A stretch of 64,000 bases of DNA from an uncultured Eubacteriales bacterium (GTDB lineage: Bacteria; Acidobacteriota; Aminicenantia; Aminicenantales; Aminicenantaceae): contig CAYNVQ010000006.1 of the NCBI GenBank assembly GCA_964400735.1, positions 46,800 to 110,799 of the forward strand, in the 5' to 3' direction. The position numbers and the translations under genes were made by a program. Below the pieces are notes generated by a model, which saw nothing but the letters and a program-made list of their open reading frames with translations, ran no database searches and was not told the origin of the DNA. The stretch's first letter is position 1, and the number at the start of each line of letters is the position of its first letter. Shown here piece after piece: positions 43,229-64,000 of the stretch.

Positions 43229-43273
43229 TTCAGTTTTATTCTGCGGTTTGCCTCAGGGCAAAATTCGATAGAT

Positions 43274-45580: not shown

Positions 45581-47706
45581 GAAAAGCAGAGATTTTGGCA
45601 GCAGTTCTAATTTTAATTGGCTTTAGCGTTACAACTCTCGCCCTCCAAAACGGCTATGACCTCTTCCAGAAAGCTCTAGCCAAGGAACGGGCAGAAGGAA
45701 ACCTTGAGGAAGCCATCGCCCTTTTCCAGAAAGTCATCGAGGAATCCGAAGACGAATCCTTGGCTGCCAAGGCCCAGCTCCGCATCGGCATCTGCTACGA
45801 AAAGCTGGGGCAGGAAAAGGCAAAATTGGCTCAGGAGGCTTTTCAGAAGGTGCTCGAAAATTATCCGCAACAAGTCGATACTGTCAAAGTAGCCAGAGAA
45901 AAGCTGTCGGGTCTCTTGAGAGCTCAAGTGCTTATGGAAAAAAATGTCGAAGGGTTAAGCCTGCGTCATCTATTGATGCCATCGGGAAGAGGGGAAGATT
46001 TTGGCATCGGCGAATTCGTATCTCCCGACGGAAGGTTCTTCGCTTATTTTGATTACAACGCCGGGGCCGTAGGCATCTATGAGCTGGCAACAGGAAAAAA
46101 GCAGCTGTTAAAGAGCAAGATTAAAGAGGATGAGCCGTGGGGAGAGAGTTGGCAATTGATCTGGTCTCCCGACAGCAAAGCGCTCCTCTGCAACTGGTGG
46201 CAGACGCCGGATTACCATTGGTCCGATCTGCGAATCATCCGCCTTGATGGGACAGAACAGCGGTCTGTCTTCCGCTCTGAGGAATATGACGAAGTCTATC
46301 CCATGGATTGGTCCTCAGACGGAAGCCAAATTCTCGCGGTCTTCTACGGAGATTTTCCAGAAGGGAAAAAAATAGGTCTCATCTCTGTTAAAAACGGATC
46401 TGAACGCATCTTGAAAACCAGCGATTACGGATGGGCGCACATGAAATTTTCGCCGAATGACAGGTACATTGCATACGACTATTACTCTCAAGAAGAGCAC
46501 TACAACCGTAATATTGCTATCCTTTCAGCAGATGGAAAAGTGGAAATCCCGCTGGTCACACATCCAGCACAGGACTCTCTTGTGGGCTGGTCTCCCGACG
46601 GAAAGTATGTGCTCTTTACAAGCGACAGGACAGGGACAAATGATCTTTGGCTGATCCCTTTCAAAGATGGGAGAGCTGCAGGGAATGTACGATTGATCAA
46701 AGAGGGATTGGGGAAAATCGATGTGGGCGGAATAACCCAAAATGGATCTTTGTATTATATATCTGGGGGGCAGATGGAGGATATCTATGTTGGCGAATTG
46801 GATTGGGTTTCCGGAAAAGTCGATATAGCCCCGGAAAAAATGACCTTTTCACAGGAAGGGAGCAACTCTTGGCCTCAATATTCTCCGGATGGGAAGTCCA
46901 TCGTTTGTGTTCAGGGAGGCGGAATTATGGCAGAGCAGGCAGAAACATCGCTGTGCGTCCGTTCTTTGGAAAATGGCATAGAACGAAAATTTGCGTTGAA
47001 GATGCAGGCTCGACTTCCGCGATGGTCTCCAGACGGCCGCTTTATTTATTTCACATCATTTGATCGTCCCCGTCATTGGAGCATCTTTCGGGTTGAATTA
47101 AGAACAGGTCAGGTTTCGAAATCCTGGCCAGAAGATTTTGGAAGCAAACCAATCGGCAATGTTTTTGTTGGGATTTCTCCTGACGGCAAGAATTACTACT
47201 ACATTCGTTGCGATGAACAAGACAAATACAGCCGACTTGTTGTCCGGGATCGGGGGACAGGGAGCGAGAAAGAGCTTTTACGCAAAGTTATGACGCTCAT
47301 TGTAGCTTCCTTATCTCCTGATGGGAGATGGCTTGCTGTGACCAGTCGGGAAGAAGAAAGGGCGATCCTGATTGTGCCGTCAGAAGGAGGAGAGCCTCGA
47401 GAACTGTGTCGATTCAACCTCAAAGGAGGGCATCCTACATGGCTCGATTGGACTCCTGACAGCCAATCCATCATTTTCAGCAGAAGGATCGATGAGTCAA
47501 AATCTGGGGTTTCGGGGTGGGGACTGTATCAAGTCTCTATTGATGGAGGAGATCCTCAGTTCCTGGGAATCAGCACAACATATATTTCAGATTTCGATGT
47601 CCACCCCGATGGAAAACAACTCGCTTTCGCCTCTTATGGTCCCGAATGGAAAGAAGCCAAGCTGTGGGTGATGGAGAATTTCCTCCCTGATACTGAGAAA
47701 AAATAG
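45577..47706 (+). CDS. Secreted TPR-like plus PD40 beta-propeller protein, module 6 copy B; tandem paralog
   Basis: The ATG at 45577 sits behind AAGGAGG and forms an ATGA overlap with the stop of the upstream paralog. The signal peptide is MRKAEILAAVLILIGFSVTTLA. The first ~60 residues are almost identical to copy A: QNGYDLFQKALAKERAEGNL.EAIAL.QKVI.ES.DESLAAKAQLRIGICYEKLG. The C-terminus is LWVMENFLPDTEKK. The track start at 45520 is an upstream extension. Confidence 0.8.
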   Translation: MRKAEILAAVLILIGFSVTTLALQNGYDLFQKALAKERAEGNLEEAIALFQKVIEESEDESLAAKAQLRIGICYEKLGQEKAKLAQEAFQKVLENYPQQVDTVKVAREKLSGLLRAQVLMEKNVEGLSLRHLLMPSGRGEDFGIGEFVSPDGRFFAYFDYNAGAVGIYELATGKKQLLKSKIKEDEPWGESWQLIWSPDSKALLCNWWQTPDYHWSDLRIIRLDGTEQRSVFRSEEYDEVYPMDWSSDGSQILAVFYGDFPEGKKIGLISVKNGSERILKTSDYGWAHMKFSPNDRYIAYDYYSQEEHYNRNIAILSADGKVEIPLVTHPAQDSLVGWSPDGKYVLFTSDRTGTNDLWLIPFKDGRAAGNVRLIKEGLGKIDVGGITQNGSLYYISGGQMEDIYVGELDWVSGKVDIAPEKMTFSQEGSNSWPQYSPDGKSIVCVQGGGIMAEQAETSLCVRSLENGIERKFALKMQARLPRWSPDGRFIYFTSFDRPRHWSIFRVELRTGQVSKSWPEDFGSKPIGNVFVGISPDGKNYYYIRCDEQDKYSRLVVRDRGTGSEKELLRKVMTLIVASLSPDGRWLAVTSREEERAILIVPSEGGEPRELCRFNLKGGHPTWLDWTPDSQSIIFSRRIDESKSGVSGWGLYQVSIDGGDPQFLGISTTYISDFDVHPDGKQLAFASYGPEWKEAKLWVMENFLPDTEKK

Positions 47707-49055: not shown

Positions 49056-51146
49056 CTATTTTTTGCCTTCCGGCAGAAAGTTTTCCATGACCCAGTATTC
49101 CGGGTAGGGCATGGAAAATCCTTCAGATGAAAATACGATCTCGTTGCCATTTGGGTGAACTTGGGGTTCGTCCGGATCGAGCATGGATAAACCAACCTCG
49201 AGCAATTCTCCTCCGTTGAGCGGTATGCGGCAAAACGCTTCTTGTCCCAATACATCTGATTTTTTGAAAAAGAGAATATATTGGCTGTCCGGAGTCCAAG
49301 TTAAGGCAATTGGAGCGCCCCCTCGTTGGTTGAACCGGCAGAGCACGCGCGGCTCTCCTCCTTCCGCAGGAATGATCTTCAGCTCCCGATCCAATTCACG
49401 CCCAATAAAGGCCAGCCATTTTCCATCTGGCGAAAGGGAAATATTCGCATAAGAGTGGGATGTCTGGTGTATTTTTTTCCTTTTTTCCGTTTCAAAATCG
49501 TAACGGCATATGAGGTCATTAGATTTGCCCTTTTCCCCTTGAATGTAAAAGAAAAATTTTCCGTCTGGTGTCCATTCACTGAAACGGTATTCTTCTTTTT
49601 CGGACGGCTTCGGCAACAGGATAGCTTTTATATCTTCTGTCTGAACATCGATCCTGAAGATTCCAGTCAATCTGGATTCGGTGATTCCCGATAAAAGAAT
49701 AGCTCGACCATCCGGAGACCACCGTGGATAGAAGGCTTTCACGTTAAGAGAGAATGTTTTCTCTTTTCCTGATCCCAGAGAGCGAATATGCAGGGATGAG
49801 CTGTAATGTCCAAAAGAACCACGAATGTAAGCCAGGTTTTTTCCATCAGGCGAATAGGCTGGGAAATCGTTGCTCCCCTCAGATGGGAGGTCCATCTTTT
49901 CTGGTGGATTTTGAATCTCTCCGGTCTCTGGATCGAGTGAAGAGGTGTAGATATCTTCCATCTCCTTTGAAGACATAAAATAAAAGGAGCCATCTTTACT
50001 GAAACCCAATGGAGTATTTACCGCTCCTCTTTTTACCAATAGGGGATCCCCTTGTGTTTTTCCATCGCTGATTGAAACTATCCAGGCATCGTCGGATCCC
50101 AATCGGCTGCTTTGAAAAAGAATCCATCGCCCATCAGGTGACCATCCGAGCATTTTTTCATTTGCAGGGTGCTCGATCAGAGGAATCTCTCTGCTTTCCT
50201 CCATAGCATACAGGTAAATATCGCTTTCAGGGCTTTTCTCCTCTTGAGGTTTTTCATAAGCGATATATCGGCCGTCTGGGGATATGTTTGTATTTCTTCC
50301 CAATTTAATTGGAATGGCTTGTGTTGTTTTATCCTTCAGAGACAACACCGCCCTTTGGTTTTCAAGCCCGTCTTTTGATAAAGCGATCAGAATTTGTTCA
50401 CCGTCAGGAAACCAGTCCAGCGGCCAGGCATACGCGATTTCTTCATTCTTATAGACCGTATAAGGTTTTTTATCTTCAATTCCTATGATTCTAATGTCTG
50501 AAAAAGACTTTCCGTGCCACCAATCATAGACAATCTTTTTTCCATCCGGGGACCAGGTGGAATAAAGGGGATAGCCAATTTCATTCTTTTGGTCGGTAAG
50601 AAGCTGTTTCTTTCCGGTGGTGAGATCTCGGATGGCCAGATTGTTCGTTTTCCAATCCACGATCGAGACATATCGTCCATCAGGGGAGACAGCACCCAGC
50701 CACCCGTCATAGAGGGTATCCGGTCCGGATACCAACTGCCTGACTTTTAATCCAGTGTCCCCTCTCTCGACGACTGCTCGAGCTCTAGCAAGAACAGAGA
50801 GTTTTTTGTTGGCCATTTTGACCGCTTCTGCCTGATCGGGATAGTTATCCACGACCTTCTGGAAAGCATTCTGGGCCTGTCTCAAACCCAGTTTTTCGTA
50901 ACATATCCCTACGAAATATTGTGACTTGGCGGCGTATTCTCTTTCGTTCGGATATTTGGCGATGATCTCCTCGAAGAGCTCGATGGCTGCGTTGAGATCT
51001 CCTTTGGTTTCCATGGTGTACTTGGCCTTTTCGAAAAGCACCTTGTGCTCTGAGGAGTTCTGGAACCCAAAGGCTGTGAAGATAAAGGCGGCCGCAAATA
51101 TGGCAAATAATGGAATGATTTGAATTAAAGTTTTTTTCCGGCTCAT
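49056..51146 (-). CDS. Secreted TPR-like plus PD40 beta-propeller protein, module 7, reverse strand
   Basis: The preferred start is the ATG at 51146..51144 behind GAGGAGG, giving MSRKKTLIQIIPLFAIFAAAFIFTAFG as signal peptide. The track start at 51233 is upstream in frame. The TPR-like N-domain includes AKSQYFVGICYEKLG. WSPDGK, SPDGR and HPNGN repeats are present. The C-terminus is YWVMENFLPEGKK. Confidence 0.8.
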   Translation of the reverse strand: MSRKKTLIQIIPLFAIFAAAFIFTAFGFQNSSEHKVLFEKAKYTMETKGDLNAAIELFEEIIAKYPNEREYAAKSQYFVGICYEKLGLRQAQNAFQKVVDNYPDQAEAVKMANKKLSVLARARAVVERGDTGLKVRQLVSGPDTLYDGWLGAVSPDGRYVSIVDWKTNNLAIRDLTTGKKQLLTDQKNEIGYPLYSTWSPDGKKIVYDWWHGKSFSDIRIIGIEDKKPYTVYKNEEIAYAWPLDWFPDGEQILIALSKDGLENQRAVLSLKDKTTQAIPIKLGRNTNISPDGRYIAYEKPQEEKSPESDIYLYAMEESREIPLIEHPANEKMLGWSPDGRWILFQSSRLGSDDAWIVSISDGKTQGDPLLVKRGAVNTPLGFSKDGSFYFMSSKEMEDIYTSSLDPETGEIQNPPEKMDLPSEGSNDFPAYSPDGKNLAYIRGSFGHYSSSLHIRSLGSGKEKTFSLNVKAFYPRWSPDGRAILLSGITESRLTGIFRIDVQTEDIKAILLPKPSEKEEYRFSEWTPDGKFFFYIQGEKGKSNDLICRYDFETEKRKKIHQTSHSYANISLSPDGKWLAFIGRELDRELKIIPAEGGEPRVLCRFNQRGGAPIALTWTPDSQYILFFKKSDVLGQEAFCRIPLNGGELLEVGLSMLDPDEPQVHPNGNEIVFSSEGFSMPYPEYWVMENFLPEGKK

Positions 51147-51242
51147 GGTGAAACCTCCTCGTTTTGATCTTTCACCATTCAATTTAACTCTTTTCCTCCC
51201 GCCTGCTGTCAAACAAACATAAACAAATGTCAAAGAATGTCA

Positions 51243-51929
51243 TCAGTCCATGAATCTGTAGCCTTCTCCGTAAACTGAAAGGATATGCCGGGGACGGGAG
51301 GGGTTCTCTTCGATTTTTTTTCTCAATTTCAAAATATGATTGTCTATGGTGCGGGTGGTGGGGAATTTCTCGTATCCCCAGATTTTATCCAGTAAGTCAT
51401 CCCTTTTGACCACTTCTCCCGGATAGGAAAGAAAATATCTGAGGATTTCCGCTTCCAGCGAAGTCAAATCCCACTCCTTTCCTGCACGCCTTATCTTGAA
51501 ATGGTTGAAGTCGATCTCCACATCTCCGAGAGTGTAGATATCTGGTATGGATCTGGTGCTTCTCTGTTCCCGTCTCAGGTGGGCCTTTATCCGTGCCAGA
51601 AGCTCGCGGATGCTGAAGGGCTTGGTGATGTAATCGTCGGCGCCGATCTCCAGCCCTACCACTTTATCGATCTCTTCTCCTTTGGCCGTGAGCATGATGA
51701 TGGGAGTGCCGATCTTTTTTTCCCTGAGCTGGCGGCAGACCTCCAGCCCGTCCTTTTTGGGGAGCATGATATCCAGGATGATCAATGCCGGTCTTTCTTT
51801 AAAGACTCGCTCGAGCCCCTGCTCTCCATCGGATGCCCAGGCTACATGATACCCCTCATCCTCCAAATTAAGCCTCAGTCCTTTGACCAGGTCCTCTTCA
51901 TCTTCGATGATCAATATCTTTTCTTTCAT
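51243..51929 (-). CDS. OmpR-family response regulator, module 7
   Basis: [13 protein letters not shown] is present. The phospho-acceptor lies in [19 protein letters not shown] is present. The C-terminus is [11 protein letters not shown]. Confidence 0.9.
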
Positions 51930-51938
51930 GGTGTATCC

Positions 51939-54047
51939 TTATCTGCCCTCAAGGGGCAGAATGATAGAAAAAGTGGTTCCTTCTCCCGGCTCGCTCTCCA
52001 CATCCACCCGCCCTCCATGGGCCTCGGTGATGTGCTTGACCAGGGTTAATCCCAGGCCGCTTCCCTTGGCCTCGGGCGAGAGCTTGTTTTTCGACCGGTA
52101 AAACCTGGTGAAGATCTTTTTGATTTCCTTGGGAGTTATACCGATTCCCTTATCTGATACTTGAAGTACGGCTCTCCCATTCTCTTTAAACAGCCTTACC
52201 GCAACTTCCTTTTTATCCGGAGAGAACTTCACCGCATTGTTCAAAAGGTTGATTAGAACGCTGGAGATGGCTTCCCGGTCGAAAAGCATTTCAGGAAGAT
52301 TGGAATCTATTCGGTCGTGAACTGAAAATCCTTTCTTCTCCAGATGGTAACGGTAGGATTCGAGAGTCTCTTTAACCGCCTCAGCCAGGTCGCCTATTTG
52401 AAAATCGAATTCTTTTCGTCCCATGTCGATCCTGGAGAAGTCAAGGACATTGTTGATCAGGTGGGAAAGGCGTTCGCTCTCTTTGGTGATGATCTCGTAA
52501 CATTCAGCTTTTTGGAGGTCTGAGAGGTTTTTTTTCCGCTGGAGGGTTTCTCCGTAGAGGCGGATGAGGGTAAGAGGCGTTTTCAATTCATGGGAAACGT
52601 TGTGGACAAACTCGGTTTTTTGGCGGGTGGCTTCCTTTTCCCGGGTGATATCCCGGGCGATGAGAATGGCCCCCAGAGCCAGGAGCGTCACGATCACGAA
52701 AAATAGAATGCCGTAAGCAAAGACATCTCGTTGGGCTGTTTGCTGGAGGTTTTCCAATCCCGGTTGGGCCACAGCGAGCTGCCAAGAAATAGGAAAATGC
52801 CGAAAAGAAAAGGTCAGAGAAGAAGCCTCAGAGACGTTATCTCTATTTGAAGATCGATCACTCTCATCTGTGATCCTGACCATAAGGCCTGTTTCTTTTT
52901 CGATGTTATTCAGAATTTGAGGGATGAGATTTTCCTTCAATAATCGAAGGTCCCAACAGAATCCTCCATGGCCGCCTCTATCCAGCTGAGAGAGTGCTCT
53001 ATAAGATATCATATAAGATTGATCTAAGTGGTGAGCGAGCAGGCGCTTAGGCTGGTCTTTTTCACTGACTGGAGTCAAGCTGACATTTTCTTTTATCCTG
53101 GGAATGACTTTTGTTTTTAAAAACTCGGCAAACAGCAGGGATTCCAGATAAGGAGATGCCCGGCTTTGGAGCGACCGGAAAGTTGCCTGAAGTTCGGGGA
53201 GATCATTTTCCCTTAGCCTATCTTCGATATCGGCCTCGATTTCTTCGATGAAAAGATCATAGGCCGGAATATCGATCAGCCATTTGCCGTTTTTGATATT
53301 TTCATATAGATGGAGTATGGCTTCGAGGCTTTTTGTCTCCTCTCCCATTTGCTGGCTGATTTCATAAAGCTGGAGAGAGGCCGTTATTCCGAAGGGATGC
53401 CCGGCTTTGTTTTTAAGATGACTGTATTCCCTGAGGAGTTGTTCGTAGACCTCCACAGCCCTATCATATTTTTTCATGGAAGCTAAGCATCTTCCTATTG
53501 CCTCTAAAGCTGTGGCCTTGTGCTGACTGGAAGGCGCCTTTTGATAGTATTCCTGATAGAGCTCAACAGCCTGGGTATAGTTTTTATCAGAGAACTCGAA
53601 GTTTTCGGCCTTCTGATATGATTCGCCGAGTGGTTGCTGAGACGAATCCATTTCTTCAAGAAATTCAGGTTTCTCATCTATTCCCGTCCGGGGAAAAAGG
53701 ATGAGGAAGTCCTCATCCAACAAAAAATATTTCCCCTTTTCTGAGCCGAATGGAATTTCTGTTTTCAAAGGAACGAATCTGCCTTTGTTTTCTTTAATCA
53801 AACTTGCGAAATTTTCTAAGCTCAATGTCTCACGTTCGTTTTCAAGAAGAGAGTTCTCGAGTGATTTAAGAGCGGTATTTCCTGATACCCAGAGATTTGA
53901 TTCCACAATCTGTTGAACCGTTTCTCTCCGCTGCGAAAAGGTCTTCATGCTCAGATAGGCGATGAGAAGGGAGGGAAAAATGATGGCGAGCAGAAAAATA
54001 ACAACGATTTTTTTTCCGCCGAAAGGACCAAAAAAGGACCTGTTCAT
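51939..54047 (-). CDS. Sensor histidine kinase, module 7, same two-TM architecture
   Basis: TM1 is [19 protein letters not shown]. The sensor domain carries [20 protein letters not shown] and [15 protein letters not shown]2 is [22 protein letters not shown]. The H-box is [21 protein letters not shown] is present. Confidence 0.85.
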
Positions 54048-54341: not shown

Positions 54342-57300
54342 ATGGAAGCACATAAGGTAAAATGCCCGCACTGTAATCACGAAAATCCTCCGAATATGAT
54401 CTATTGTGAAGAATGCGGGGAAATGCTCATCCACGTTAAGTACTCCCGAGAGCAGCCTTCCAAGTCCGGAGAAGAACCGGCTGCTTCTCCCGAACCTTCC
54501 GAGGTTTCCGATTCCTCTAAGGATACCTCCCAGCCTTCTTCCGAAGAACTGAAGTCCGGCGGTATGTTCGCTGGCCGCTATAAGATTTTGGGTAAGCTCG
54601 GCGAAGGGAAAACCAGCCACGTCTATAAAGTCATCGATTCAAAGACCGGCCAGGAAGTGGCCCTCAAATTGATCAAATCCGATAGCGCGCCGGATGATAG
54701 GACTTTCAAGCGCATACAAAAAGAATTCAAAACTGTAAGAAAATTGTCCCATAAGCATATCTGCCGGATGGTTCACCTGGGTACCTTCAAGGGAACCCGC
54801 TACGTCACCATGGAATATTTAGCCGGCGAGCCATTAAAGGATGCCATAAAAAGAATGGGGCAGTTCACCTTCAGAAAGTCCCTGTTTACGGCCAAGCAGA
54901 TTTGCGAAGGGCTTGCCGAGGCCCACCGAATGGGTGTTATCCACGGGAACCTTAAGCCGCAGAATATCAAGGTCGACGAATTCGGGAACGTCCACATCAT
55001 GGACTTCGGATTGACCGGTTTTACAAAAGGTGAAAAAAAGAATGATGCAGCCTACAGATCCCCGGAGCAAATGAGAGGAGAGGAGATCGACCGAAGGACG
55101 GATATCTATTCATTAGGTATCATTCTCTATGAGATGTTGACAACCAGGTTGCCTATATCCGGAGAAATCCCCATAAGCCTTGCGCAGGAACAACAAATCC
55201 CCGGAAGCTTCAGCCGGATGATTCTCAAATGCCTCGTGAAAGAAAAGGAAAACAGGATACAGAGCGCCGAGGAGATTCTTGAAGTATTGAACAATCTCGA
55301 TACGGAAGCCCCTTCCACCGAAAAGGTTGTGCCGGAGAGAAAACCTGCCTTCACAAAAAAGAGAGCTGTCAGATTCGATGGGCGGAAATTCCTGGTTCCC
55401 GGATTGATCGCTGTGGGTGTGGTTGTTGTCGCTATCCTCGTCTGGCAATTCATGATTGTTCAAAAGATAGGTTCCGTACCTGAAGGAAAACCCTCCCTGG
55501 CTGTCGTGTATTTCGAAAACAGCACTGCCGATAAAAGTATCGATTACTGGGGAAGAATGATTGCGGAATCCTTCACAGCCGATTTAGGTCAGTCGAAGTA
55601 TTTGGATGTATCGAGCAGCGAAAAATTGTATGCTGTTCTGGACGAGCTGGGTCTGCTGAAGGCAAAGACCTATACCCCGCCAGTACTAAAAAATGTGGCA
55701 AGAATAGCGGGCGTCGATTATATCATTTTCGGAAATTACGCTAAAAAGGGTGAGCTCGTAAGCCTTCAAATCTTTCTCAGAAAAATACAAAAGGAAAAGC
55801 CTGTGGCTTCTTGGTCGGAAGATTTTAGTGGAGGGGATAGCCTTTTCACGGCCGTGGACGGGCTGACGAAAAAGATCAAGCAGCGATTCAAGCTCAAAAA
55901 GGAACAGCTTGCCGATGATTTGGACAGAGAGGTGTCTCAGATCACGACAGGTTCGCCTGAGGCATTTAGGTACTATCTTGAAGGACAAAGGAGTTATCTC
56001 GAGAGGAATTACCAGCAGAGTATGGAGTCGATGAAAAAAGCGGTCGCTATCGATCCAGAGTTCGCTCTGGCCTATAAATACCTGACCATGGCCTATGTTC
56101 GTCTGGGCCTTTCTTCGGAACGAGAGGAGGCTTTCCAGAAAGTCATGGACTTGAGCGATCGAATAGCGGAAAAAGAGCTGTACACCTTGGAAGGAGATTA
56201 TTTCCTGGAGTCGGAGGAGACCTATGATAAGGCCATTGAGGCCTTTACAAAATTAACCCAGCTTTATCCCGACGATTCCACCGCCCGTCTCAATCTAGGC
56301 GGCATTTATTTCACGATCGAAGAATTGGATAAGGCTCTGGAACAGTTCGAACAGATCAAAGGAGACCAGGCTGAAACCTTCAACACTTTCGCTTTGATAG
56401 CCGATATCTACATGATGGAGGGCTTATACGACAGGGCGGAGGAAGGCCTCAGGAATTATTTGAACAATTTTTCCGATAAAGGTTGGACCCATCATTTTCT
56501 GGCCTTCACCTACATCGCGGAAGGAAATTCTTATTTTGCTCAAAATGAAATCGATGAGGCATCTGTCCTTGATCCCCAAAATCCTTTGAGCCCTTATCTC
56601 AAAGGCGTGTATTTTACATTGACCGGTTCCTTTGTCGATGCAGAGAAAGAATACCAGAGGCTACTGAAGAGAAAAGACATCTCTGGTTCTTATTTAGGAT
56701 ACCATGGCCTAGCCAATTTAAAGCTGGTGCAGGGGCGGCTCCGTGAGTCCAGAGAGTATCTTAACGAAGTGATAGCATTGTCCAGGAAAATAGGAGTGCA
56801 GTGGATAGAGTCTCAGGCGCTTTCGATATTGGCTTTGCGGCTCTTAGAAGCGGGGAGCCCCCAGAATGCGTTGAGAGTGTGCAACCTGGCGTCGGATGCC
56901 GCTACCAGTGCAGGGAGACTCGATCTTCAGAGGCTGGCACTGCATTACAAAGGGCTGGCCTATGTTGTCTTGAGGTCTTTCTCAAGAGCAAATAGAACGG
57001 CCGAACAGCTGAAAGAGCTTATCGAGAAAGGGAGTCATGAGAAAGAAATAAGGCGCTACCATCATCTTATAGGAATGATTGAGCTGGAAAGAAAGGACTA
57101 TTCCAAGGCCATCGAAAACCTGGAGCTGGCTTTGTCTCTTCTCCCCCATCAATCATCGCTGGGGAATGAGGCCCATATAAGGAATTCCCAAGCTTTGTTC
57201 ATCAATTCTTTGGCTCTGGCTTATTACAGGTCTGGGGACCTGGAAAGAGCTGTCGAACAGTATGAGCGGATCAACAGCCTGACCTCGGGGAGGCTTTTTT

Positions 57301-57482
57301 TCGGGTATATCTTTGCCAAGAGTTTTTATACGCTCGGCAGGATATACCAGAATCTTGGCAACAATGCCAAAGCTGAAGAGAATTACAACAAATTTCTGGC
57401 TCTCTGGTTCAATGCCGATCCTGGCATTTCTGAGGTCAATGATGCTAAAAATCGTCTAACCCGGCTGAATAGGACGCCTTGA
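54342..57482 (+). CDS. Membrane Ser/Thr-protein-kinase-like protein (predicted pseudokinase): N-terminal zinc ribbon, kinase-like domain with HGN in place of HRD, one TM helix, large extracytoplasmic TPR domain
   Basis: The zinc ribbon is KCPHCNHENPPNMIYCEECG. A Ser/Pro/Glu-rich linker follows. The kinase subdomains are the Gly loop LGEGKTSHVY, VAIK as VALKLIK, and a catalytic loop VIHGNLKPQNI in place of HRDLKPxNI. DFG and SPE are present. The TM helix is LVPGLIAVGVVVVAILVW. About 650 aa of TPR-like repeats follow. Confidence 0.8.
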   Translation: MEAHKVKCPHCNHENPPNMIYCEECGEMLIHVKYSREQPSKSGEEPAASPEPSEVSDSSKDTSQPSSEELKSGGMFAGRYKILGKLGEGKTSHVYKVIDSKTGQEVALKLIKSDSAPDDRTFKRIQKEFKTVRKLSHKHICRMVHLGTFKGTRYVTMEYLAGEPLKDAIKRMGQFTFRKSLFTAKQICEGLAEAHRMGVIHGNLKPQNIKVDEFGNVHIMDFGLTGFTKGEKKNDAAYRSPEQMRGEEIDRRTDIYSLGIILYEMLTTRLPISGEIPISLAQEQQIPGSFSRMILKCLVKEKENRIQSAEEILEVLNNLDTEAPSTEKVVPERKPAFTKKRAVRFDGRKFLVPGLIAVGVVVVAILVWQFMIVQKIGSVPEGKPSLAVVYFENSTADKSIDYWGRMIAESFTADLGQSKYLDVSSSEKLYAVLDELGLLKAKTYTPPVLKNVARIAGVDYIIFGNYAKKGELVSLQIFLRKIQKEKPVASWSEDFSGGDSLFTAVDGLTKKIKQRFKLKKEQLADDLDREVSQITTGSPEAFRYYLEGQRSYLERNYQQSMESMKKAVAIDPEFALAYKYLTMAYVRLGLSSEREEAFQKVMDLSDRIAEKELYTLEGDYFLESEETYDKAIEAFTKLTQLYPDDSTARLNLGGIYFTIEELDKALEQFEQIKGDQAETFNTFALIADIYMMEGLYDRAEEGLRNYLNNFSDKGWTHHFLAFTYIAEGNSYFAQNEIDEASVLDPQNPLSPYLKGVYFTLTGSFVDAEKEYQRLLKRKDISGSYLGYHGLANLKLVQGRLRESREYLNEVIALSRKIGVQWIESQALSILALRLLEAGSPQNALRVCNLASDAATSAGRLDLQRLALHYKGLAYVVLRSFSRANRTAEQLKELIEKGSHEKEIRRYHHLIGMIELERKDYSKAIENLELALSLLPHQSSLGNEAHIRNSQALFINSLALAYYRSGDLERAVEQYERINSLTSGRLFFGYIFAKSFYTLGRIYQNLGNNAKAEENYNKFLALWFNADPGISEVNDAKNRLTRLNRTP

Positions 57483-57595
57483 TATCGATTAATAATAAAT
57501 TTGGATTGTTAAAAAAAAATGCTGATAACCTTAATCTTGAATCGTGAATGATCCGAATGAATTTTTTTGAAAGGTAATCAATTAGGAGGGTTTTT

Positions 57596-57889
57596 ATGTT
57601 TGCACGCGTGACTTCCGCCAGGATAGATAAGGATAAGATCGAGCAATTGAAAAAAATTTATGAAGAGAACGTGGTTCCTGCAGCAAAAAAGCAGAAGGGA
57701 TTCAAGGGAATTTGCCTAATGGTCGATCGAAAGACTGGAGAGGCTTTATCCATCAGTTACTGGGCCACCCAGGAAGATGTTCTGACAACCGAGAAAAATC
57801 TGTACTACCAGCAACAGGTGGCCAGGTTCCTTCCTTATTACACCCGCGATCCCATCCGCGAAGGCTACGAAGTGCTCATCCAGGAATAG
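57596..57889 (+). CDS. Small ABM/Dabb-like (ferredoxin-fold) protein, copy 1
   Basis: It is 97 aa and behind the RBS taggagggtttttATG. Its beta-alpha-beta pattern, MFARVTSARIDKD..GFKGICLMVDRKTGEALSISYWATQEDVLT, resembles antibiotic-biosynthesis-monooxygenase-type domains. It is 45-50% identical to copy 2. Confidence 0.55.
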   Translation: MFARVTSARIDKDKIEQLKKIYEENVVPAAKKQKGFKGICLMVDRKTGEALSISYWATQEDVLTTEKNLYYQQQVARFLPYYTRDPIREGYEVLIQE

Positions 57890-58039
57890 GGGACGTTCCT
57901 TTAGGAACCACCCCATTTTTTGAATGAGTTCTGGATTCATCCACTCTGAGTTGGGATCCCCCATTTGATACATCCTTCCTGTTTGATGCTCACCAATATT
58001 ATTTTTGTGAGATAGGGTGGTTCCTAAAGGAACGTCCCC
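57889..58039. repeat. ~150-bp element bounded by perfect 24-bp inverted repeats, GGGGACGTTCCTTTAGGAACCACC and GGTGGTTCCTAAAGGAACGTCCCC, copy 1
   Basis: The left arm at 57889..57912 begins in the stop codon, within TAGGGGACG. The right arm lies at 58016..58039. Each arm contains the sub-palindrome GTTCC-TTTA-GGAAC. The ~100-bp interior is about 85% identical to copy 2. Confidence 0.7.
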
Positions 58040-58180
58040 CTTGTTCTATCAGGGGCTTTGACATATTGTGATTTTATTATAAGATAGAAATAAGGAAAAT
58101 TGTTTCATGGGGTGCACCATAAGCCAAGGAAGGCATGGGGGGCAAACCCCAAGGATAGAGGAATGATGGAGGGATAAATC

Positions 58181-58474
58181 ATGTTTGCACGCTGCACGAC
58201 TATGCGATTCAAGATCGCTTTTATAGATAAAGCTATCGATATTTATAACCAAAGCATCCTTCCTGCTGCGAAATCACAGAAAGGATTCATGGGGCTCAAT
58301 TTTTTCCTGGACAGAAAGACGGGAAGAGCGGTTTCCATCGCTATCTGGGAAAGCGAAGAAGATGCCTTAGCCAATGAAAAGAGTCATTACTACCAGGAGC
58401 AGCACATCAAATTGATGAGCCTTTATTCCATGCCGCCCATTCGCGAAGGCTTCGAAGTTATCGTCAGAATATAG
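58181..58474 (+). CDS. Small ABM/Dabb-like protein, copy 2
   Basis: It is 97 aa and behind the RBS gatggagggataaatcATG. Its own putative promoter, TTGACA-N16-TAAGAT, lies at about 58056..58084. Shared segments with copy 1 include MFAR.T..R......D......I.PAAK.QKGF.G........TG.A.SI..W...ED.L..EK..YYQ......L.....PIREG.EV. Confidence 0.55.
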   Translation: MFARCTTMRFKIAFIDKAIDIYNQSILPAAKSQKGFMGLNFFLDRKTGRAVSIAIWESEEDALANEKSHYYQEQHIKLMSLYSMPPIREGFEVIVRI

Positions 58475-58624
58475 GGGACGTTCCTTTAGGAACCACCTCA
58501 TTTTTGAAAGGAGTTCTGGAAGCATCCCTGTCTGAGTTGGGATCCCTCATTTGATACTATCCTTCCTTTTTACGGTCACCAATATAATTTTGTGAGATAG
58601 GGTGGTTCCTAAAGGAACGTCCCC
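58474..58624. repeat. Second copy of the 24-bp-IR-bounded element
   Basis: The left arm is at 58474..58497 and the right arm at 58601..58624. Both are identical to the copy-1 arms. Flanks are conserved: ...TAGGGGACG on the left and CGTCCCCCTTGT on the right. Confidence 0.7.
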
Positions 58625-58720
58625 CTTGTCATTTTTTTTATGATATGATATTGCATTTCTTTAAAAGTCATTGCTCGAATCAAAAAAAACAAGGGGAATA
58701 ATTATGATAGGAGGTCTGCT

Positions 58721-61165
58721 ATGAGACGGTCGATATGTCTTCTTTTCGTATTGATTGCAACGGCTTCATTTTTATCGGCTGAACTTCCCGCCATCAGCCA
58801 GAAAACAGCCGGCATGAAAAAATATTCCGGCTTCTTTAACTTTTATTGGGATGCCGGTGCCGGCAAGATTTGGCTGGAGGTCGATAAATTCGATACCGAA
58901 TTTCTGTATGTGAGCTCTTTGCCAGCCGGCATCGGATCGAATGAAATTGGGCTGGATGGCCGCCAGATGGGAGAAACCCGCGTCGTTTATTTCCAGCGCA
59001 TGGGCCCGAAAATTCTGCTCGTTCAACCGAATTATTCCTTCCGGGCGACCTCTGACAATCCTGCTGAACGAAGGGCTGTGGAGGAAGCCTTTGCCCAGTC
59101 GATTATTTGGGGATTCAAAGCCGAGGCAGAAGAAGGAGACCGGGTCATGGTGGACGCCACACCGTTCTTGATGGAGGATGCTCATGGGGTAATCCCTAGA
59201 CTCCAACGAGCCGGTCAGGGAAATTTCAGAGTCGACTCGACACGCTCCTCAATCTATTTGCCCCGAACCAGAAACTTTCCCCGAAATACAGAGATTGAGA
59301 CCATTCTGACTTTCACCGGCCAGAATCCGGGAATGTTGCTCCGCCAGGTTGTGCCTGATCCGAGCTCGCTCACTGTCAGGCAGCACCACTCCTTCATCCA
59401 ACTTCCTGATGATGGCTACGAGCTTCGCATGTACGATCCACGTTCCAACTTCTTCGGGATGACCTATCTGGATTTCTCGGCACCCATCGACCAGCCTTTG
59501 ACTAAAGCCTTTATCGCGCGCCACAGGCTTAAAAAGAAGGACCCGAACGCCGAAGTGAGCGACCCTGTCGAGCCCATCGTCTATTATGTGGATCCCGGAG
59601 TTCTGGAGCCCATACGGTCGGCTCTAATCGAGGGAGCGAGCTGGTGGAATCAGGCTTTCGAGGCCATAGGATACCATAACGCCTTTCAGGTTAAAGTCCT
59701 TCCCGAAGATGCCAATCCCATGGATATCCGTTACAACATGATCAACTGGGTACACCGCTCTGCCCGGGGTTGGTCTTACGGATCGTCGGTCACGGACCCC
59801 AGAACTGGAGAGATCCTGAAAGGGCACGTGGCCCTCGGGTCACAGCGCCTACGCCAGGATTTCTTGATTGCCCAGGGCTTGGTGGCCGAATACGATGGAA
59901 GCCCAGAAGCTTCCCAGGAAATGGTGGAGCTGGCCCTGGCCCGCATCCGGCAGCTATCCTGCCACGAAGTCGGCCACACCCTCGGAATGGGGCACAACTA
60001 TGCGGCCAGCGTCAATGACCGGGCATCGGTCATGGATTATCCCCACCCCTTGGTCAAGATTGATGCGGATGGCTCGCTGGATCTTTCCGATGCTTATGCT
60101 ACGGGAATAGGCGAATGGGACAAGGTTTCTATAGCCTATGGGTACCAAGATTTTCCTGAAGGCGTCGATGAAGAAAAAGAACTGAGAAAGATTCTCGACG
60201 ATGCCTTCTCCAGAGGACTGGTTTTTCTGGCCAGCCAGGATGCCGGTCCTTCCAGCGCCCATCCGCTCGCGGCGACATGGGATAACGGAAAGGACCCTGT
60301 GAACGAGCTGGAACGGCTGATGAAAATAAGGGCCATTGCCCTTCAGGATTTTTCACAAAAAAGAATCCCCATGTGGGCGCCCATGGCCACTCTGGAAGAG
60401 GTTTTGGTGACAACCTATCTCTTTCATCGATACCAGGTAGAGGCGGCCGCCAGCGTTCTGGGAGGCCTCATCTACAATCACAGGCTCCGGGGAGATATCC
60501 AGAAGAACCCTCAGATCGTCCCGTCGGAGGAGCAGAGACGGGCCCTGGATGTGATTCTCAAGACCGTTGCTCCGGCGAATTTGGCTATCGACGAGAAAAT
60601 TCTGGGCATCATTCCGCCCCGGCCTCCGGGATACCGGCAAACGCGGGAGCTTTTTTCCGGGTATACCGGTATGACCTTCGATCCTCTGGGGGCTGCCGAA
60701 GCAGCTGCTAATCTGACCATAGGATTGATCCTCCGCCCGGAAAGGTCCGCCCGGCTCGTGGATTATCATGCCAGGAACAGCGATTATCCCGGTTTTGGAG
60801 AGGTTTTGGACAAGATTATCGAATTTACCTGGAAGAAGACCTACGAATCCGGGAAATTGGCGGAGATCCAGCGGGTAGTCAACAATGTGGTTTTGTATCA
60901 TCTGATGAGCCTGGCTGCAGATGAGAGGAACGCCCCACAAGTCAGGGCCATCGCTTTCGCCAAACTGGATGGACTGAATAGGTGGCTCAAAGGGCAAATA
61001 AACCGTAAAATCGATAGTCTGTCTTTTACAGAAGATGCCAATCAAAGGGCCCATTTTATCTATGCCAGCGGAAAGATCGATCTGTTTCAGAAAGACCCCA
61101 CAAAAATCACGCTTCCGGCTCCCCTTTATCCTCCGCCCGGACCCCCCATCGGGATGGTCGATTGA
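58721..61165 (+). CDS. Secreted zinc metalloprotease, metzincin-like HExxHxxGxxH
   Basis: The signal peptide is MRRSICLLFVLIATASFLSA. The extended zinc-binding motif is HEVGHTLGMGHN. A candidate Met-turn, SVMDY, follows. It is 814 aa with long flanking domains. Confidence 0.75.
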   Translation: MRRSICLLFVLIATASFLSAELPAISQKTAGMKKYSGFFNFYWDAGAGKIWLEVDKFDTEFLYVSSLPAGIGSNEIGLDGRQMGETRVVYFQRMGPKILLVQPNYSFRATSDNPAERRAVEEAFAQSIIWGFKAEAEEGDRVMVDATPFLMEDAHGVIPRLQRAGQGNFRVDSTRSSIYLPRTRNFPRNTEIETILTFTGQNPGMLLRQVVPDPSSLTVRQHHSFIQLPDDGYELRMYDPRSNFFGMTYLDFSAPIDQPLTKAFIARHRLKKKDPNAEVSDPVEPIVYYVDPGVLEPIRSALIEGASWWNQAFEAIGYHNAFQVKVLPEDANPMDIRYNMINWVHRSARGWSYGSSVTDPRTGEILKGHVALGSQRLRQDFLIAQGLVAEYDGSPEASQEMVELALARIRQLSCHEVGHTLGMGHNYAASVNDRASVMDYPHPLVKIDADGSLDLSDAYATGIGEWDKVSIAYGYQDFPEGVDEEKELRKILDDAFSRGLVFLASQDAGPSSAHPLAATWDNGKDPVNELERLMKIRAIALQDFSQKRIPMWAPMATLEEVLVTTYLFHRYQVEAAASVLGGLIYNHRLRGDIQKNPQIVPSEEQRRALDVILKTVAPANLAIDEKILGIIPPRPPGYRQTRELFSGYTGMTFDPLGAAEAAANLTIGLILRPERSARLVDYHARNSDYPGFGEVLDKIIEFTWKKTYESGKLAEIQRVVNNVVLYHLMSLAADERNAPQVRAIAFAKLDGLNRWLKGQINRKIDSLSFTEDANQRAHFIYASGKIDLFQKDPTKITLPAPLYPPPGPPIGMVD

Positions 61166-61427: not shown

Positions 61428-64000
61428 ATGATCAAAAAAATGATACCGGTATTTTGTCTTGCTATGTGTCTTGTTTTCCTGGTTTCATCCTTGTCGGCAC
61501 AGGACGAAAACCTTTTCAATGAGGAGCTTCTGAAGTTTTTCACCTTCCGTGAACTGGGTCCGGCCGTGCAGGGATCGCGGATCCTGGATATCGAGGTTCC
61601 TTCGGAAAAGCCTTATACTTTTTACGTTTCGTTCGCAACAGGAGGGTTGTGGAAGACGGAAAACAACGGGACCACCTTTACTTCCCTATTCGACCATCAA
61701 GCCGCACCGGCAATAGGGGATGTGGCCATCGCTCCTTCCAATCCTGATATAGTATGGATAGGGACGGGAACAGCAGCTTCGGGACGTTTGACCATAAAGG
61801 GGGCCGGCGTTTTCAAATCCGTGGATGGAGGGAAGTCCTGGAAATATCAGGGACTGCGGGAAACCCGACACATAGGCCGGATCTCCATCCATCCCCATAA
61901 CCCGGACATCGTGTATGTGGCGGCCCTGGGATATCACTTCAGCTACAATCAAGAACGAGGCCTCTTCAAGACCACAGACGGAGGAGTGACCTGGGAGAAG
62001 GTCCTCTACATCAGCGATAAAGTCGGGGTGGTGGAGGTGGTCCTGGACCCCAAAAATCCGGATACGGTGTATGCAGCCTCCTACGACAAATGGCGGCTTC
62101 CCTGGCATTTCGAGGAATCCGGCCCGGAAACCGCCATCTATAAATCCTCGGATGCGGGCAAAACCTGGAAAAAATTGAGCAACGGCCTTCCCATAGGAAA
62201 ACTTGGGCGGATCGGTCTGGCTATATACCCTAAGAATCCAAATATCCTGTATGCCATTATCGAAAATGCCAACATGCGCCCTCCCACCGAGGAAGAGGCG
62301 AAGAGAGACGAAGAGCGCGGCGAGGAGCCCCAGGAGAGGAGAATCGGAGGTGAGCTCTACCGCACCGAAGATGCCGGGGAGACCTGGAAAAAAATAAATT
62401 CCACTGAAGATAATCTGGGCGGAGGCAAGTGGTACGGACAAGTCAGGGTGGATCCCAACAACGACCAAGTGGTCTATGTCTTGAACACCCCTCTCCAGAG
62501 GTCGGCGGACGGAGGCGAAACCTGGGGAAAAAGGGGAGTCGAAAATATCGCCCGTAACGTCCACGTGGACCATCATGTGGTGTGGATAGATCCGGAAAAT
62601 TCGGATCATATCATCCTGGGAAACGATGGAGGCCTGGCGGTGACCTATGACTGGGGAAAGACCTGGGATGTTTATGAAAATATTCCAGGAGCCCAGTTCT
62701 ATGCCATTGGCGTAGACATGGATGAACCCTACCATATCTACGGCGGGACCCAGGACACTGGATCGATGAAGATTCCGAGCAACAGCGTCTACGGAGAGAT
62801 CACGCGGGAGGACTGGGCCTCGGTCGGAGGTGGAGACGGTATGTACAATCAGGTGGATCCCAATGACAGCCGATGGCTGTATAACGATTACCAATTGGGA
62901 GCCATCCAGCGTTTCGATCAAAAGTTGGGGCGGGGAACCAGCATCCGTCCTAGAAGAGAAAGCGGGGAAAAACCCTACAGGTTCAACTGGACAGCACCGA
63001 TTCATATCTCTCCCCATAACAGCCGGATCATCTATCTGGGCGCCGAAGTGCTTCTCCGGTCTATCAACCGGGGAGCCGACTGGCAGGAGATAAGCGCGGA
63101 CCTGACCACCAACGACCCCGAGAAACTCAAAGGAAACATCGAGCACTGCAACATCACCACGATTTCCGAATCTCCTTTGACACCGGGAATTATCTGGGTC
63201 GGAACGGATGACGGTAAGGTGCAGCTCACCAGAGATGGCGGGGGGAACTGGACCGATACTACGGCCAACCTCACCCAGGCCGGAGCTCCGGAGGATTTCT
63301 GCGTGAGCCGGGTCTTCGCCTCCCATCACGATGAGGGAACGGCCTATGTGGTCAAGACAGGATTCCAGAGAGACGATTTCCGGCCCTTCATCCACAAAAC
63401 CACGGATTTCGGTCAAACCTGGATTTCCATCTCTGGAGACCTGCCCGACGGAGTGGTCCATGTTATCGTAGAAGACAGAAAAAATCCAAACCTTCTCTTT
63501 GTGGGCAAGGAATTCGGTGTTTGGGTGTCTATAGAAGGGGGCGACAGATGGGTGCGCCTGATGAACAACATCCCCACCCAGGATATCTATGACCTCGTGA
63601 TCCATCCACGGGAGAATGATCTCGTGGTCGGGACCTACGGCCGGGGGATATATGTAGCGGACATCACGCCCCTTCAAGAGATGAGCGAAGAAGTATTGGC
63701 GAAAGAGATGCATCTTTTCGATGTGGAGCCTAAAATACAGTGGATATACAAGCAGAGGCAGAATTCTGCCGGACAAAGACACTTCACCGCTTCCAACGAA
63801 ACGAACGGGATCGTGGTCAATTACTATCTGAAAGAGAAGATAAAAGATTCCGTACGGGTATTGATCAAAGATCTGGTGGGAAACGAATTGGCGGCTTTGA
63901 AGGGCATGTCTGGTTCGGGGTTGCATAAGGTGGTCTGGGACATGCGCAAACAGTTGACCAAGGAAGAGATGGATCAAATGGACGCTGCTTCCCGGTTTCG
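61428..64000 (+). CDS. Secreted BNR/Asp-box repeat protein (sortilin/Vps10-like or sialidase-like beta-propeller); 3' end outside the window
   Basis: An uninterrupted + strand frame runs from the ATG at 61428 to the window end, over 857 codons, and the ORF track omits it. The RBS is aaggaggtcctATG. The signal peptide is MIKKMIPVFCLAMCLVFLVSSLSAQ. Nine or more Asp-box motifs (S/T-x-D-x-G-x-T/S-W) are present: SVDGGKSWK, TTDGGVTWEK, SSDAGKTWKK, TEDAGETWKK, SADGGETWGK, TYDWGKTWD, TRDGGGNWTD, TTDFGQTWIS and SIEGGDRWVR. The listed 763-aa minus-strand ORF 61686..63977 is its antisense shadow. Confidence 0.8.
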   Translation, partial: MIKKMIPVFCLAMCLVFLVSSLSAQDENLFNEELLKFFTFRELGPAVQGSRILDIEVPSEKPYTFYVSFATGGLWKTENNGTTFTSLFDHQAAPAIGDVAIAPSNPDIVWIGTGTAASGRLTIKGAGVFKSVDGGKSWKYQGLRETRHIGRISIHPHNPDIVYVAALGYHFSYNQERGLFKTTDGGVTWEKVLYISDKVGVVEVVLDPKNPDTVYAASYDKWRLPWHFEESGPETAIYKSSDAGKTWKKLSNGLPIGKLGRIGLAIYPKNPNILYAIIENANMRPPTEEEAKRDEERGEEPQERRIGGELYRTEDAGETWKKINSTEDNLGGGKWYGQVRVDPNNDQVVYVLNTPLQRSADGGETWGKRGVENIARNVHVDHHVVWIDPENSDHIILGNDGGLAVTYDWGKTWDVYENIPGAQFYAIGVDMDEPYHIYGGTQDTGSMKIPSNSVYGEITREDWASVGGGDGMYNQVDPNDSRWLYNDYQLGAIQRFDQKLGRGTSIRPRRESGEKPYRFNWTAPIHISPHNSRIIYLGAEVLLRSINRGADWQEISADLTTNDPEKLKGNIEHCNITTISESPLTPGIIWVGTDDGKVQLTRDGGGNWTDTTANLTQAGAPEDFCVSRVFASHHDEGTAYVVKTGFQRDDFRPFIHKTTDFGQTWISISGDLPDGVVHVIVEDRKNPNLLFVGKEFGVWVSIEGGDRWVRLMNNIPTQDIYDLVIHPRENDLVVGTYGRGIYVADITPLQEMSEEVLAKEMHLFDVEPKIQWIYKQRQNSAGQRHFTASNETNGIVVNYYLKEKIKDSVRVLIKDLVGNELAALKGMSGSGLHKVVWDMRKQLTKEEMDQMDAASRF

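Follow-up and report, generated by a model that had tools for sequence, protein, structure and literature searches.

A probable low-copy REPIN/MITE-like palindromic element behind two paralogous ABM-like genes of an Aminicenantes bacterium, followed through its relatives

Two paralogous genes, here called ABM1 and ABM2, are each followed without a gap by a non-coding palindromic element of 151 nt (E1 and E2, respectively) in a stretch of 64,000 nucleotides (nt) from an uncultured Eubacteriales bacterium, which GTDB places in the Aminicenantia of the Acidobacteriota (assembly GCA_964400735.1, contig CAYNVQ010000006.1, positions 46,800 to 110,799 of the forward strand; hereafter the window). On balance, and from sequence comparison, we interpret E1 and E2 as probable representatives of a low-copy, REPIN/MITE-like palindromic element, whose left hairpin, together with the U-run behind it, would serve as a 3′ terminator or stabiliser. 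The element appears to work like a palindromic repeat of the REPIN or MITE type, membership in either family not being established. The analysis drew on 78 loci, comprising 444 kb with the window included, and the L-numbers used below refer to loci compared with the window.

E1 occupies positions 57889-58039 and E2 positions 58474-58624, both on the plus strand, and in both cases the last base of the TAG stop codon of the preceding gene is at the same time the first base of the element (TAGGGGACG). In E1, the left arm (57889-57912) forms a hairpin, termed H, of the composition GGGGAC-GTTCC-TTTA-GGAAC-CA-CC(CC), with an A and six T residues behind it at 57915-57921; a non-coding interior of 103 nt (57913-58015) then leads to the right arm (58016-58039), a perfect reverse complement of the left one. 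E2 is built in the same way, with the left arm and its hairpin H at 58474-58497, followed here by an A and five T residues, the 103-nt interior that aligns with that of E1 at 58498-58600 and the right arm, again a perfect reverse complement, at 58601-58624. The arms of both elements are complementary at 24 of 24 positions, all four arms are identical, and each arm is a hairpin in its own right with an AC/CA mismatch; in E1, complementarity reaches 28 nt at 96%. A start within the TAG stop, perfect 24-bp arms enclosing a GTTCC-TTTA-GGAAC hairpin and complete identity of the arms between copies had all been proposed in an earlier sequence-only reading of this DNA and were confirmed here. The same reading had put the identity of the interiors at about 85%, which proved too high, since it measured 79–80% over the 103 nt, and 89% was obtained only for the elements together with their flanks (163 aligned positions).

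Within the window, the 24-nt arm (GGGGACGTTCCTTTAGGAACCACC) is present at exactly four sites, namely 57889 and 58474 on the plus strand and 58016 and 58601 on the minus strand. No further site appeared in the window even when three mismatches were allowed, and none in shuffled versions of it; the core GTTCC-N4-GGAAC was likewise restricted to these four sites, and no comparable inverted repeat was found at other places in the window. For both strands, the predicted structure is a single long hairpin that spans the whole element, with a minimum free energy of -64 to -73 kcal/mol as RNA and of -35 to -39 kcal/mol as DNA; relative to dinucleotide-shuffled sequences, the z-scores are -6 to -9. None of the small open reading frames (ORFs) within the element is conserved between E1 and E2.

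The junction of ABM1 and E1 is reproduced base for base over 146 nt in two independent Logan assemblies (L005 and L006) and is therefore not an assembly artefact. Both of these contigs end at the equivalent of window position 58032, exactly 30 nt past the last base that distinguishes E1 from E2. We attribute this break to an assembler effect at k = 31, because a stretch of 42 nt is identical in E1 and E2, and this stretch breaks short-read assembly at the locus.

With regard to the genes themselves, ABM1 (57596-57889, plus strand) encodes a small ABM/HmoA-like protein of 97 amino acids, as judged from its ORF and Pfam, and ABM2 (58181-58474, plus strand) encodes its 97-residue paralogue, as judged from its ORF, Pfam and protein alignment. 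The two genes start 585 bp apart, in line with the earlier description of two 97-residue paralogues at this distance, each directly trailed by an element of about 150 bp, and their products share 45 of 97 aligned residues (46%), within the 45–50% given before. Pfam scores for the ABM domain were borderline, 22.9 bits for ABM1 and 18.6 bits for ABM2 at a cutoff of 23.1. Many of the 114 ABM1 homologues retrieved are annotated with PF03992 or named "heme-degrading monooxygenase HmoA" at the source, and their organism names are those of Aminicenantes. Over the same lineages, ABM2 is markedly better conserved than ABM1 (87–92% versus 75–84% amino acid identity), which indicates that the two genes are under different constraint.

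The history of the elements was read from about ten related Aminicenantes loci, in which we compared the DNA around ABM1 homologues of 94% to 65% identity. The order of a Ser/Thr kinase with TPR repeats, ABM1, ABM2 and a DUF4953 Met-zincin is kept in every relative whose contig spans that far. In the most distant group (L013/14 and L015-17; ABM1 identity of 65–69%), neither gene is followed by an element, and the spacer between ABM1 and ABM2 is down to 60 nt. At an ABM1 identity of 75–84% (L007, L009/11, L069-71, L074, L076, L077 and L078), there is again no element behind ABM1, and E2 or its remains are found behind ABM2. E1 was seen only where ABM1 identity is 94–100%, that is, in the window, in L005/6 and in L067/68 (94%); within this group, E2 follows ABM2 in the window, and the other contigs end before ABM2. 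Because the same gene order exists without one or both elements, the elements must have been added to a pair of genes that was already in place. This comparison of loci shows the ABM1-ABM2 pair to be old and, on sequence grounds, E2 to be a later insertion and E1 to be later still. It also refutes the fallback of the sequence-only reading, according to which a gene with its terminator had simply been duplicated in tandem, as the pair predates the elements in the relatives.

The position of E2 is constant among the relatives (TA|GGGG ... CCCC|(C)TTGTCA), and its state varies widely. Complementarity of the arms, 24/24 in the window, falls to 21–22/24 in L009 and L076, to 20/24 in L074 and to at most 16/24 in L069 and L077, in which the right arm has largely decayed. 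In L007, E2 is reduced to a perfect 11-4-11 hairpin (GGGGATGTTCC-TAAA-GGAACGTCCTC) and in L078 to a 6+6 palindrome (GAGGAC|GTCCCC). We infer that these short hairpins are symmetrical deletions of the long palindrome, because lineages closer than L007 and L078 have long forms, and so do more distant ones; long palindromes are, moreover, known to be unstable. In addition, the E2 orthologues in L009 (4773-5100) and L076 (2349-2680) hold about 175 nt of extra sequence inside, possibly a nested insertion. Taken in order, the loci show that E2 arrived, in an ancestor of one Aminicenantes subclade, in the gap that separates the stop codon of ABM2 from the -35 box of the zincin promoter, and that it afterwards decayed, grew or collapsed to a simple hairpin, depending on the lineage. 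In the lineage of the window, E2 remained intact and the complete unit was copied a further time, behind ABM1 and at the equivalent spot (TAG^CTT); from then on, the four arms were kept identical, with E1 and E2 evolving in concert.

The site that received E1 is preserved in the relatives. E1 comprises all parts of E2, the interior among them, and is lodged between the stop codon of ABM1 and a CTT; in the empty sites of L074, L078, L009 and L076, the stop codon is directly followed by this CTT (TAG CTTTTAT), as it is in L007 (TAA CTTCTTC), and L069 and L077 read TAA ATYGAT CTTGATC. The proposal of the sequence-only reading that a MITE-like element had inserted independently behind both genes was therefore borne out only in part: the elements are insertions into an older pair, but E1 is a secondary copy of E2, down to its interior. 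E1 and E2 have junctions in common, ATAG to the left of the element and CTT(G) to its right. That ABM2 donated E1 by ordinary homologous conversion was excluded, because the last 16 coding bases of ABM1 remained ABM1-like. Two routes of copying may be envisaged, the first being mobilisation in trans by an enzyme that is encoded elsewhere and recognises the hairpin arms (RAYT/IS200-like or other), and the second being an exchange between the two tandem loci, at a distance of 585 bp, by template switching or ectopic conversion via the 3–5-nt microhomologies ATAG and CTT(G).

The second route also forms part of an explanation without any mobility, in which a terminator hairpin behind ABM2 was expanded by an accident of template switching or inverted duplication and then copied to ABM1 by microhomology-mediated ectopic conversion, similar hairpins elsewhere being convergent GC-rich terminator stems. 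We consider such a purely local origin unlikely, yet worth weighing. It would account for the shared ATAG and CTT(G) at both junctions, for the empty ABM1 site of most relatives, in which the CTT directly follows the stop codon, and for the lack of a target duplication and of a transposase in the sequences examined. On the other hand, the unconverted 3′ end of ABM1 leaves essentially no homology for the copying step, and the distribution of H outside the ABM locus, described next, bears on the proposal from both sides.

H was defined as GGGGAC-GTTCC-N4-GGAAC-CA-CCCC, an imperfect palindrome of 24–28 nt, and was looked for by two scans. A scan of representative genomes, one per species, with the pattern GGGGACGTTCC-N4-GGAACCACC returned single arms in two metagenome-assembled genomes (MAGs) of Aminicenantes (L003 and L004) and in a MAG labelled Eubacteriales with an adjoining Aminicenantes-like kinase (L002); one Streptomyces contig matched as well, probably by chance. 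The scan of metagenomes, in which the tail could be CA, GT, GA or CT, returned 49 loci. The CA class, which corresponds to the real arm, comprised about nine distinct loci, versus one or two for each of the control tails GA and CT. The GT class, a perfect palindrome (GGGGACGTTCC-N4-GGAACGTCC), comprised about 24 mostly high-GC loci, which we judged to be unrelated terminator-like stems, set aside and did not use as evidence for relatives of H. That this palindrome occurs at some 24 unrelated-looking loci nevertheless fits the chance reuse of a stable 11-bp stem that a local origin presupposes.

The real arm was found in low-GC loci of the types L004, L002/19/20 and L003/52/57/58/60/66 and in L034, L044 and L047; these are at least six Aminicenantes-like loci in addition to the ABM locus, with H present singly or as an inverted pair. 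The occurrence of an asymmetric 24-mer, with its AC/CA mismatch and CACC tail, in identical form in at least six unrelated low-GC loci, about five-fold over the control tails, argues against a local origin. Furthermore, an inverted partner arm lies at a distance of 20 nt in L047, 36 nt in L003 and 71 nt in L034, with unrelated spacers, and independent accidents of this kind are unlikely to have been repeated. The genes located 5′ of the dispersed copies of H are unrelated to each other; one encodes an esterase-like protein, another a MalT/LuxR-type regulator and a third a small lipoprotein. Contact between H and a stop codon is frequent. In L004, as at the ABM genes, the G of the TAG stop is also the initial base of the arm; in L034 and L044, the arm begins 5–6 nt past the stop codon, the upstream ORF in L044 appearing to be spurious. 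A second, decayed H-like element (GGGGGACGTTCCTTAAAGTACCATG...GGGCGTCCCCC) was noticed in L057 (4770-4835), where it lies between convergent genes with a TAG before it, 4.7 kb from the intact arm.

An nhmmer profile of the interior, by contrast with the arms, yielded 14 matches, all of them at ABM loci and on the plus strand and derived from contigs of several samples. Because the profile matched ABM loci only, we regard the arms as a dispersed low-copy family and the interior as local; the confinement of the interior is equally what a local origin would predict. Viral contigs and the plasmid and phage collections contained no match to either the arm or the element, and a protein search with an antisense ORF that crosses the element, aimed at spurious ORF calls at other copies, produced no candidates. 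In the literature searched, no work joined Aminicenantes with "inverted repeat", and the arm sequence appeared only in two unrelated papers.

A separate recurrence was noted among the high-GC soil contigs L022, L030, L049, L056 and L065, to which a hairpin of the form GGGGACGTTCC-(AGCT/GGCT/AGCG)-GGAACGTCC is common. In L022, L049, L056 and L065, it adjoins the end of an orthologous gene (...GCATGCGTTCTGA), and L056 has a second, closely similar hairpin (GGGACGTTCCAGCTGGAACGTCC) at 343 bp from the first. The 11-bp stem of these soil sequences is reused at about 24 loci with different loops, and its recurrence is curious, even though we judged it to be unrelated to the Aminicenantes arm.

The rates of change differ sharply between the parts of the element. 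The interior of E2 is 57–67% identical to that of its orthologues, in comparison with 59–68% at the third codon positions of the adjacent genes, and E1 of the window is 80.6% identical to E1 of L068, in comparison with 84.5% at third positions; this agreement indicates that the interior is neutral. The arms of E1 and E2, on the contrary, show no difference at 48 positions against a divergence of 21% in the interiors (P of about 1e-5), and the four arms have acquired none of the roughly 7.7 substitutions to be expected from the time of separation from the L068 lineage (P of about 5e-4). In the E2 orthologues, the left, stop-proximal arm is conserved at 21–23 of 24 positions (88–96%; P = 0.008 for 21/24 and 8e-5 for 23/24); as these orthologues were found via the protein, there was no ascertainment on the arm. 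Two compensatory double changes keep the arms paired, namely T>C with A>G at arm position 8 in L009/76 and the replacement of A-U by G-C at arm position 19 in L069/77. The identity between E1 and E2 within the window (89%) exceeds that between E1 and its orthologue in L068, from which we conclude that the two elements evolve in concert or have been re-copied.

In view of these rates, the alternative of the sequence-only reading, a structured 3′ element more tightly constrained than the genes, stands for the arms, which are conserved far above the neutral level, and falls for the interior, which changes like third codon positions. The folding and covariation check that had been suggested gave a similarly divided outcome, with a stable long-hairpin fold but an unfavourable term for covariation: RNAalifold found the arm stem, the interior pairs were poorly conserved and the alignment-wide covariation term was unfavourable.

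Both genes downstream of the elements appear to possess promoters of their own. A promoter-like site for ABM2, TTGACA-16-TAAGAT, was detected by sequence scan at 58058-58085 on the plus strand; it lies outside E1 and directly after it, as stated earlier, and its homologues (TTGAYA...TAAGAT/TAGGAT) in L007, L069, L074 and L077 are kept without E1. For the Met-zincin gene, a promoter is inferred at 58626-58654 on the plus strand, consisting of a -35 box TTGTCA (58626-58631), a T-rich spacer of 17 nt and the sequence TGaTATTGC (58646-58654). This site, which was found by reading the sequence and had not been listed by a simple promoter scan, abuts the right end of E2 (CTTGTCA), and its pattern CTTGYCATTTG...TGTGATATTSC is kept in all relatives, including the element-free L013 and L015.

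The left arm has the make-up of an intrinsic terminator, that is, a GC-rich stem-loop with a U-run directly behind it on the sense strand, the stem containing a 2x2 internal loop. The predicted energy of its hairpin is -13.6 kcal/mol in E1 and -10.6 kcal/mol in E2, followed by A+U6 and A+U5, respectively, and the U-run after H is retained in L068, L074 and L076. In L007, the collapsed hairpin is fully paired only via G-U pairs of the sense strand. A bias towards G-U pairs was also considered as evidence for a sense-strand RNA; six wobble-preserving transitions versus two that preserve pairing on the opposite strand only were counted by eye, which is suggestive only and was not relied on. Since a promoter of its own appears shortly past an element for both ABM2 and the zincin gene, the sequence features point to an intrinsic terminator or a 3′ protective stem-loop as the most likely function of the left arm. 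Accompanied by its U-run, the stop-proximal H would terminate each ABM transcript or shield its 3′ end, the left hairpins would insulate three separately promoted transcription units, and the right arm and spacer would be baggage of the way in which the unit is copied. With the hairpin beginning inside the stop codon, the terminating ribosome would cover it. As a speculation, the right arm might constitute a second terminator, with the T-rich spacer of the zincin promoter providing the T-run as its tail. Read-through of UAG or pyrrolysine recoding promoted by the hairpin was rejected, given a second in-frame TAG four codons on and the location of other copies of H 5–6 nt past TAA or TGA stops.

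A functional RNA, either a small RNA derived from the 3′ untranslated region or a cis-regulatory structure, would be expected to show the very stable predicted fold and the constrained arms described above. Alternatively, a regulator that controls ABM2 and the zincin gene could use the arms as palindromic operators, considering that the right arms lie 19 nt (E1) and 1 nt (E2) upstream of the next -35 box and that the window is rich in response regulators. We regard either of these possibilities as improbable. The interior is neutral, its predicted pairs are poorly conserved and the covariation term is unfavourable; no Rfam family matched, a permissive search of 57400-58800 giving only sub-threshold matches of plant-miRNA type, due to the long stem, and a weak match to PYLIS_2 on the wrong strand. 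As for operators, the right arm stands 17–18 nt further from the promoter in E1 than in E2, so that there is no common phasing, the promoters are conserved in relatives without elements, and the right arm decays in some lineages.

The inverted sites have an asymmetric centre (TTTA/TAAA) and are placed shortly before the promoter of the following gene; together with arms kept perfect in the lineage of the window, this recalls an inverton, in which a recombinase encoded elsewhere would act on the inverted 26-bp sites, each an imperfect palindrome like hix or gix, and flip the 103-bp segment, thereby changing the termination or promotion that faces ABM2 and the zincin gene. Similarly to hix/gix-type and Bacteroides Mpi-type invertons, repeats of about 25 bp surround a segment on the 100-bp scale upstream of a gene; unlike them, the present elements showed no orientation polymorphism, no recombinase was found and the promoters lie outside the segment. 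In particular, the 14 matches to the interior, from several samples, all have the same orientation, the breaks of L005 and L006 reflect the 31-mer repeat and not an inversion, and the downstream promoters are not only external to the elements but older than them. Partner arms spaced at 20 and 36 nt elsewhere leave too little room for inversion, in L069 and L077 the right arm is free to decay, and the window ORFs examined include no recombinase. Global invertases can be encoded far from their sites. Overall, we judge an inverton to be very improbable.

The resemblance to integron cassettes is that a small ORF is immediately followed by an imperfect palindrome of cassette length, twice in tandem, so that the locus might be read as two [ORF + attC] units, or a CALIN; for half of the CALINs known, the genome has no integrase (PMC4889954). 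The earlier judgement that an attC site was the less likely candidate was upheld, and we would give this explanation hardly any credence. Regular expressions applied to either strand of E1 and E2 with 20 nt of flank matched neither RYYYAAC nor GTTRRRY, so that the R″/R′ core sites are missing, and the arms pair perfectly over 24 nt without the extrahelical bases or unpaired central spacer of attC. Moreover, the arrangement of the ORFs and their neighbours does not vary among the relatives whose contigs cover the locus, element-free ones included, and the candidate window ORFs contained no integrase-like ORF or integrase domain.

Among known repeats, E1 and E2 come close to REPINs as Bertels and Rainey describe them, in which a variable, poorly conserved spacer separates two imperfect palindromes of opposite orientation; REPINs form hairpins and in some cases are flanked by A/T runs that possibly reflect a use in transcription attenuation (PMC3337134). 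In E1 and E2, too, inverted imperfect palindromes enclose a less conserved spacer, the whole is predicted to form a long hairpin, and REP, BIME and REPIN sequences share with them an asymmetric centre that confers orientation and an intergenic location at gene 3′ ends. Singlets appear as decay products in both cases (PMC3337134). The differences concern abundance and origin, since REPINs number tens to hundreds per genome, along with a single RAYT gene that they flank, in contrast to two full copies of the E element in 64 kb; REPINs are, in addition, known from Proteobacteria, whereas the E elements belong to Aminicenantes/Acidobacteriota and have no conserved 5′ tetranucleotide of the GTAG type.

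The comparison with MITEs is equally mixed. With a length of 151 nt, below 500 bp, inverted ends of 24–28 nt and no conserved ORF, the elements resemble the Correia elements (CREE) of Neisseria, ERIC and QMITE2 of Coxiella, which are non-coding, 100–200 bp long and have terminal inverted repeats of 23–29 bp around a core of 100–145 bp (PMC10969869). They also share with MITEs with long terminal inverted repeats an intergenic or 3′-untranslated location, a transcript folding into a long stem and a copy number that can be low (PMC10969869). Among prokaryotic MITEs, flanking repeats wane with age, and copy number goes down to 1–22 (PMC10969869). The E elements differ in that there is no flanking direct repeat, unlike the TA target duplication made by Correia, the core was found at ABM loci only in the 444 kb and is not common to other arm-bearing loci, and each arm is a hairpin by itself. 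The plasmid and phage collections contained no insertion sequence with such ends that could be the parent, and the flanks fit neither Tn3-type ends (GGGG... with a 5-bp duplication) nor the TA duplication of the IS630/Tc1 type. SPRITEs, which we compared by the description in a review only (PMC10969869), are similar as small dispersed repeats behind genes that resemble intrinsic terminators, but are of unrelated sequence and from another phylum.

Several results weigh against a REPIN/MITE-like element with a terminator function. Firstly, the copy number is low, with only two elements in the window, no contig of a GTDB representative with more than one exact arm and no second locus sharing the interior in the 444 kb searched by profile. 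Secondly, no trace of a mobilisation process was seen: neither copy has a target-site duplication (flanks ...AATA|E1|CTTGTT and ...TATA|E2|CTTGTC), no transposase, RAYT or recombinase was present among the window ORFs examined, and tblastn with approximate queries for the Escherichia coli RAYT and IS608 TnpA, a weak test, gave no hit with E < 1 in 444 kb. Loci from the exact-pattern scans, furthermore, were ascertained for intact arms and are silent on arm conservation. Lastly, a simple terminator consensus scan did not flag the arms, and H outside the ABM locus often has no U-run (L034, L047), so that terminator activity is not a general property of H. With these points taken into account, we still favour a low-copy, REPIN/MITE-like element as the probable reading, that is, a new example of a familiar kind, from a phylum for which the literature searched contains no such description, with no new mechanism indicated.

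A more far-reaching version, which we put forward as quite unlikely, would see H and its doublets as the substrate of a dedicated hairpin-recognising system for mobilisation or maintenance in Aminicenantes, REPIN-RAYT-like or based on a different enzyme, in a phylum from which no such system has been described. Insertion would preferentially place the first G of the element as the last base of a TAG stop codon, an arrangement that arose independently at ABM1, ABM2 and L004; the system would thereby couple translation termination to the 3′ hairpin, and it would keep the arms of a genome identical.

The locus is bordered by its two syntenic neighbours, assigned by Pfam and synteny and both on the plus strand: upstream, a zinc-ribbon Ser/Thr kinase with TPR repeats (54342-57482) and, downstream, the Met-zincin with DUF5118, DUF5117 and DUF4953 (58721-61165). 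The remainder of the window is dominated, from 1724 to 54047, by seven paralogous three-gene modules, each consisting of a TPR histidine kinase of about 700 residues, an OmpR-type response regulator of about 230 residues and a TPR+PD40 beta-propeller protein of about 720 residues. They are located at 1724-6827, 11391-16510, 16672-21546, 21632-26734, 30243-35313, 40572-45580 and 49056-54047 (minus strand), with an extra PD40 gene (45520-47706) beside the module at 40572-45580. Identity to the members of the first module was 49–68% for the response regulators, 29–42% for the kinases and 27–37% for the propellers. An ECF sigma factor (36497-37087) directly followed by a zf-HC2 anti-sigma factor (37091-38074) is placed in the middle of this two-component array, and two minus-strand ORFs, 7060-8058 (332 residues) and 61686-63977 (763 residues), had no Pfam match at E <= 1e-4.

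For the biology of the group, the finding adds an example from an uncultured and poorly studied phylum to the small palindromic intergenic repeats represented by REP/REPIN, MITE, ERIC and Correia sequences. In particular, the locus offers an unusually clear natural "time series" of such an element, in which the element is seen, each time in a different lineage, to arise, to be copied behind a paralogue, to evolve in concert with its copy, to lose one arm to mutation, to grow internally and to collapse symmetrically into a plain terminator hairpin. The series bears on the exaptation of such elements as terminators and on the possible descent of plain terminator hairpins from palindromic elements.

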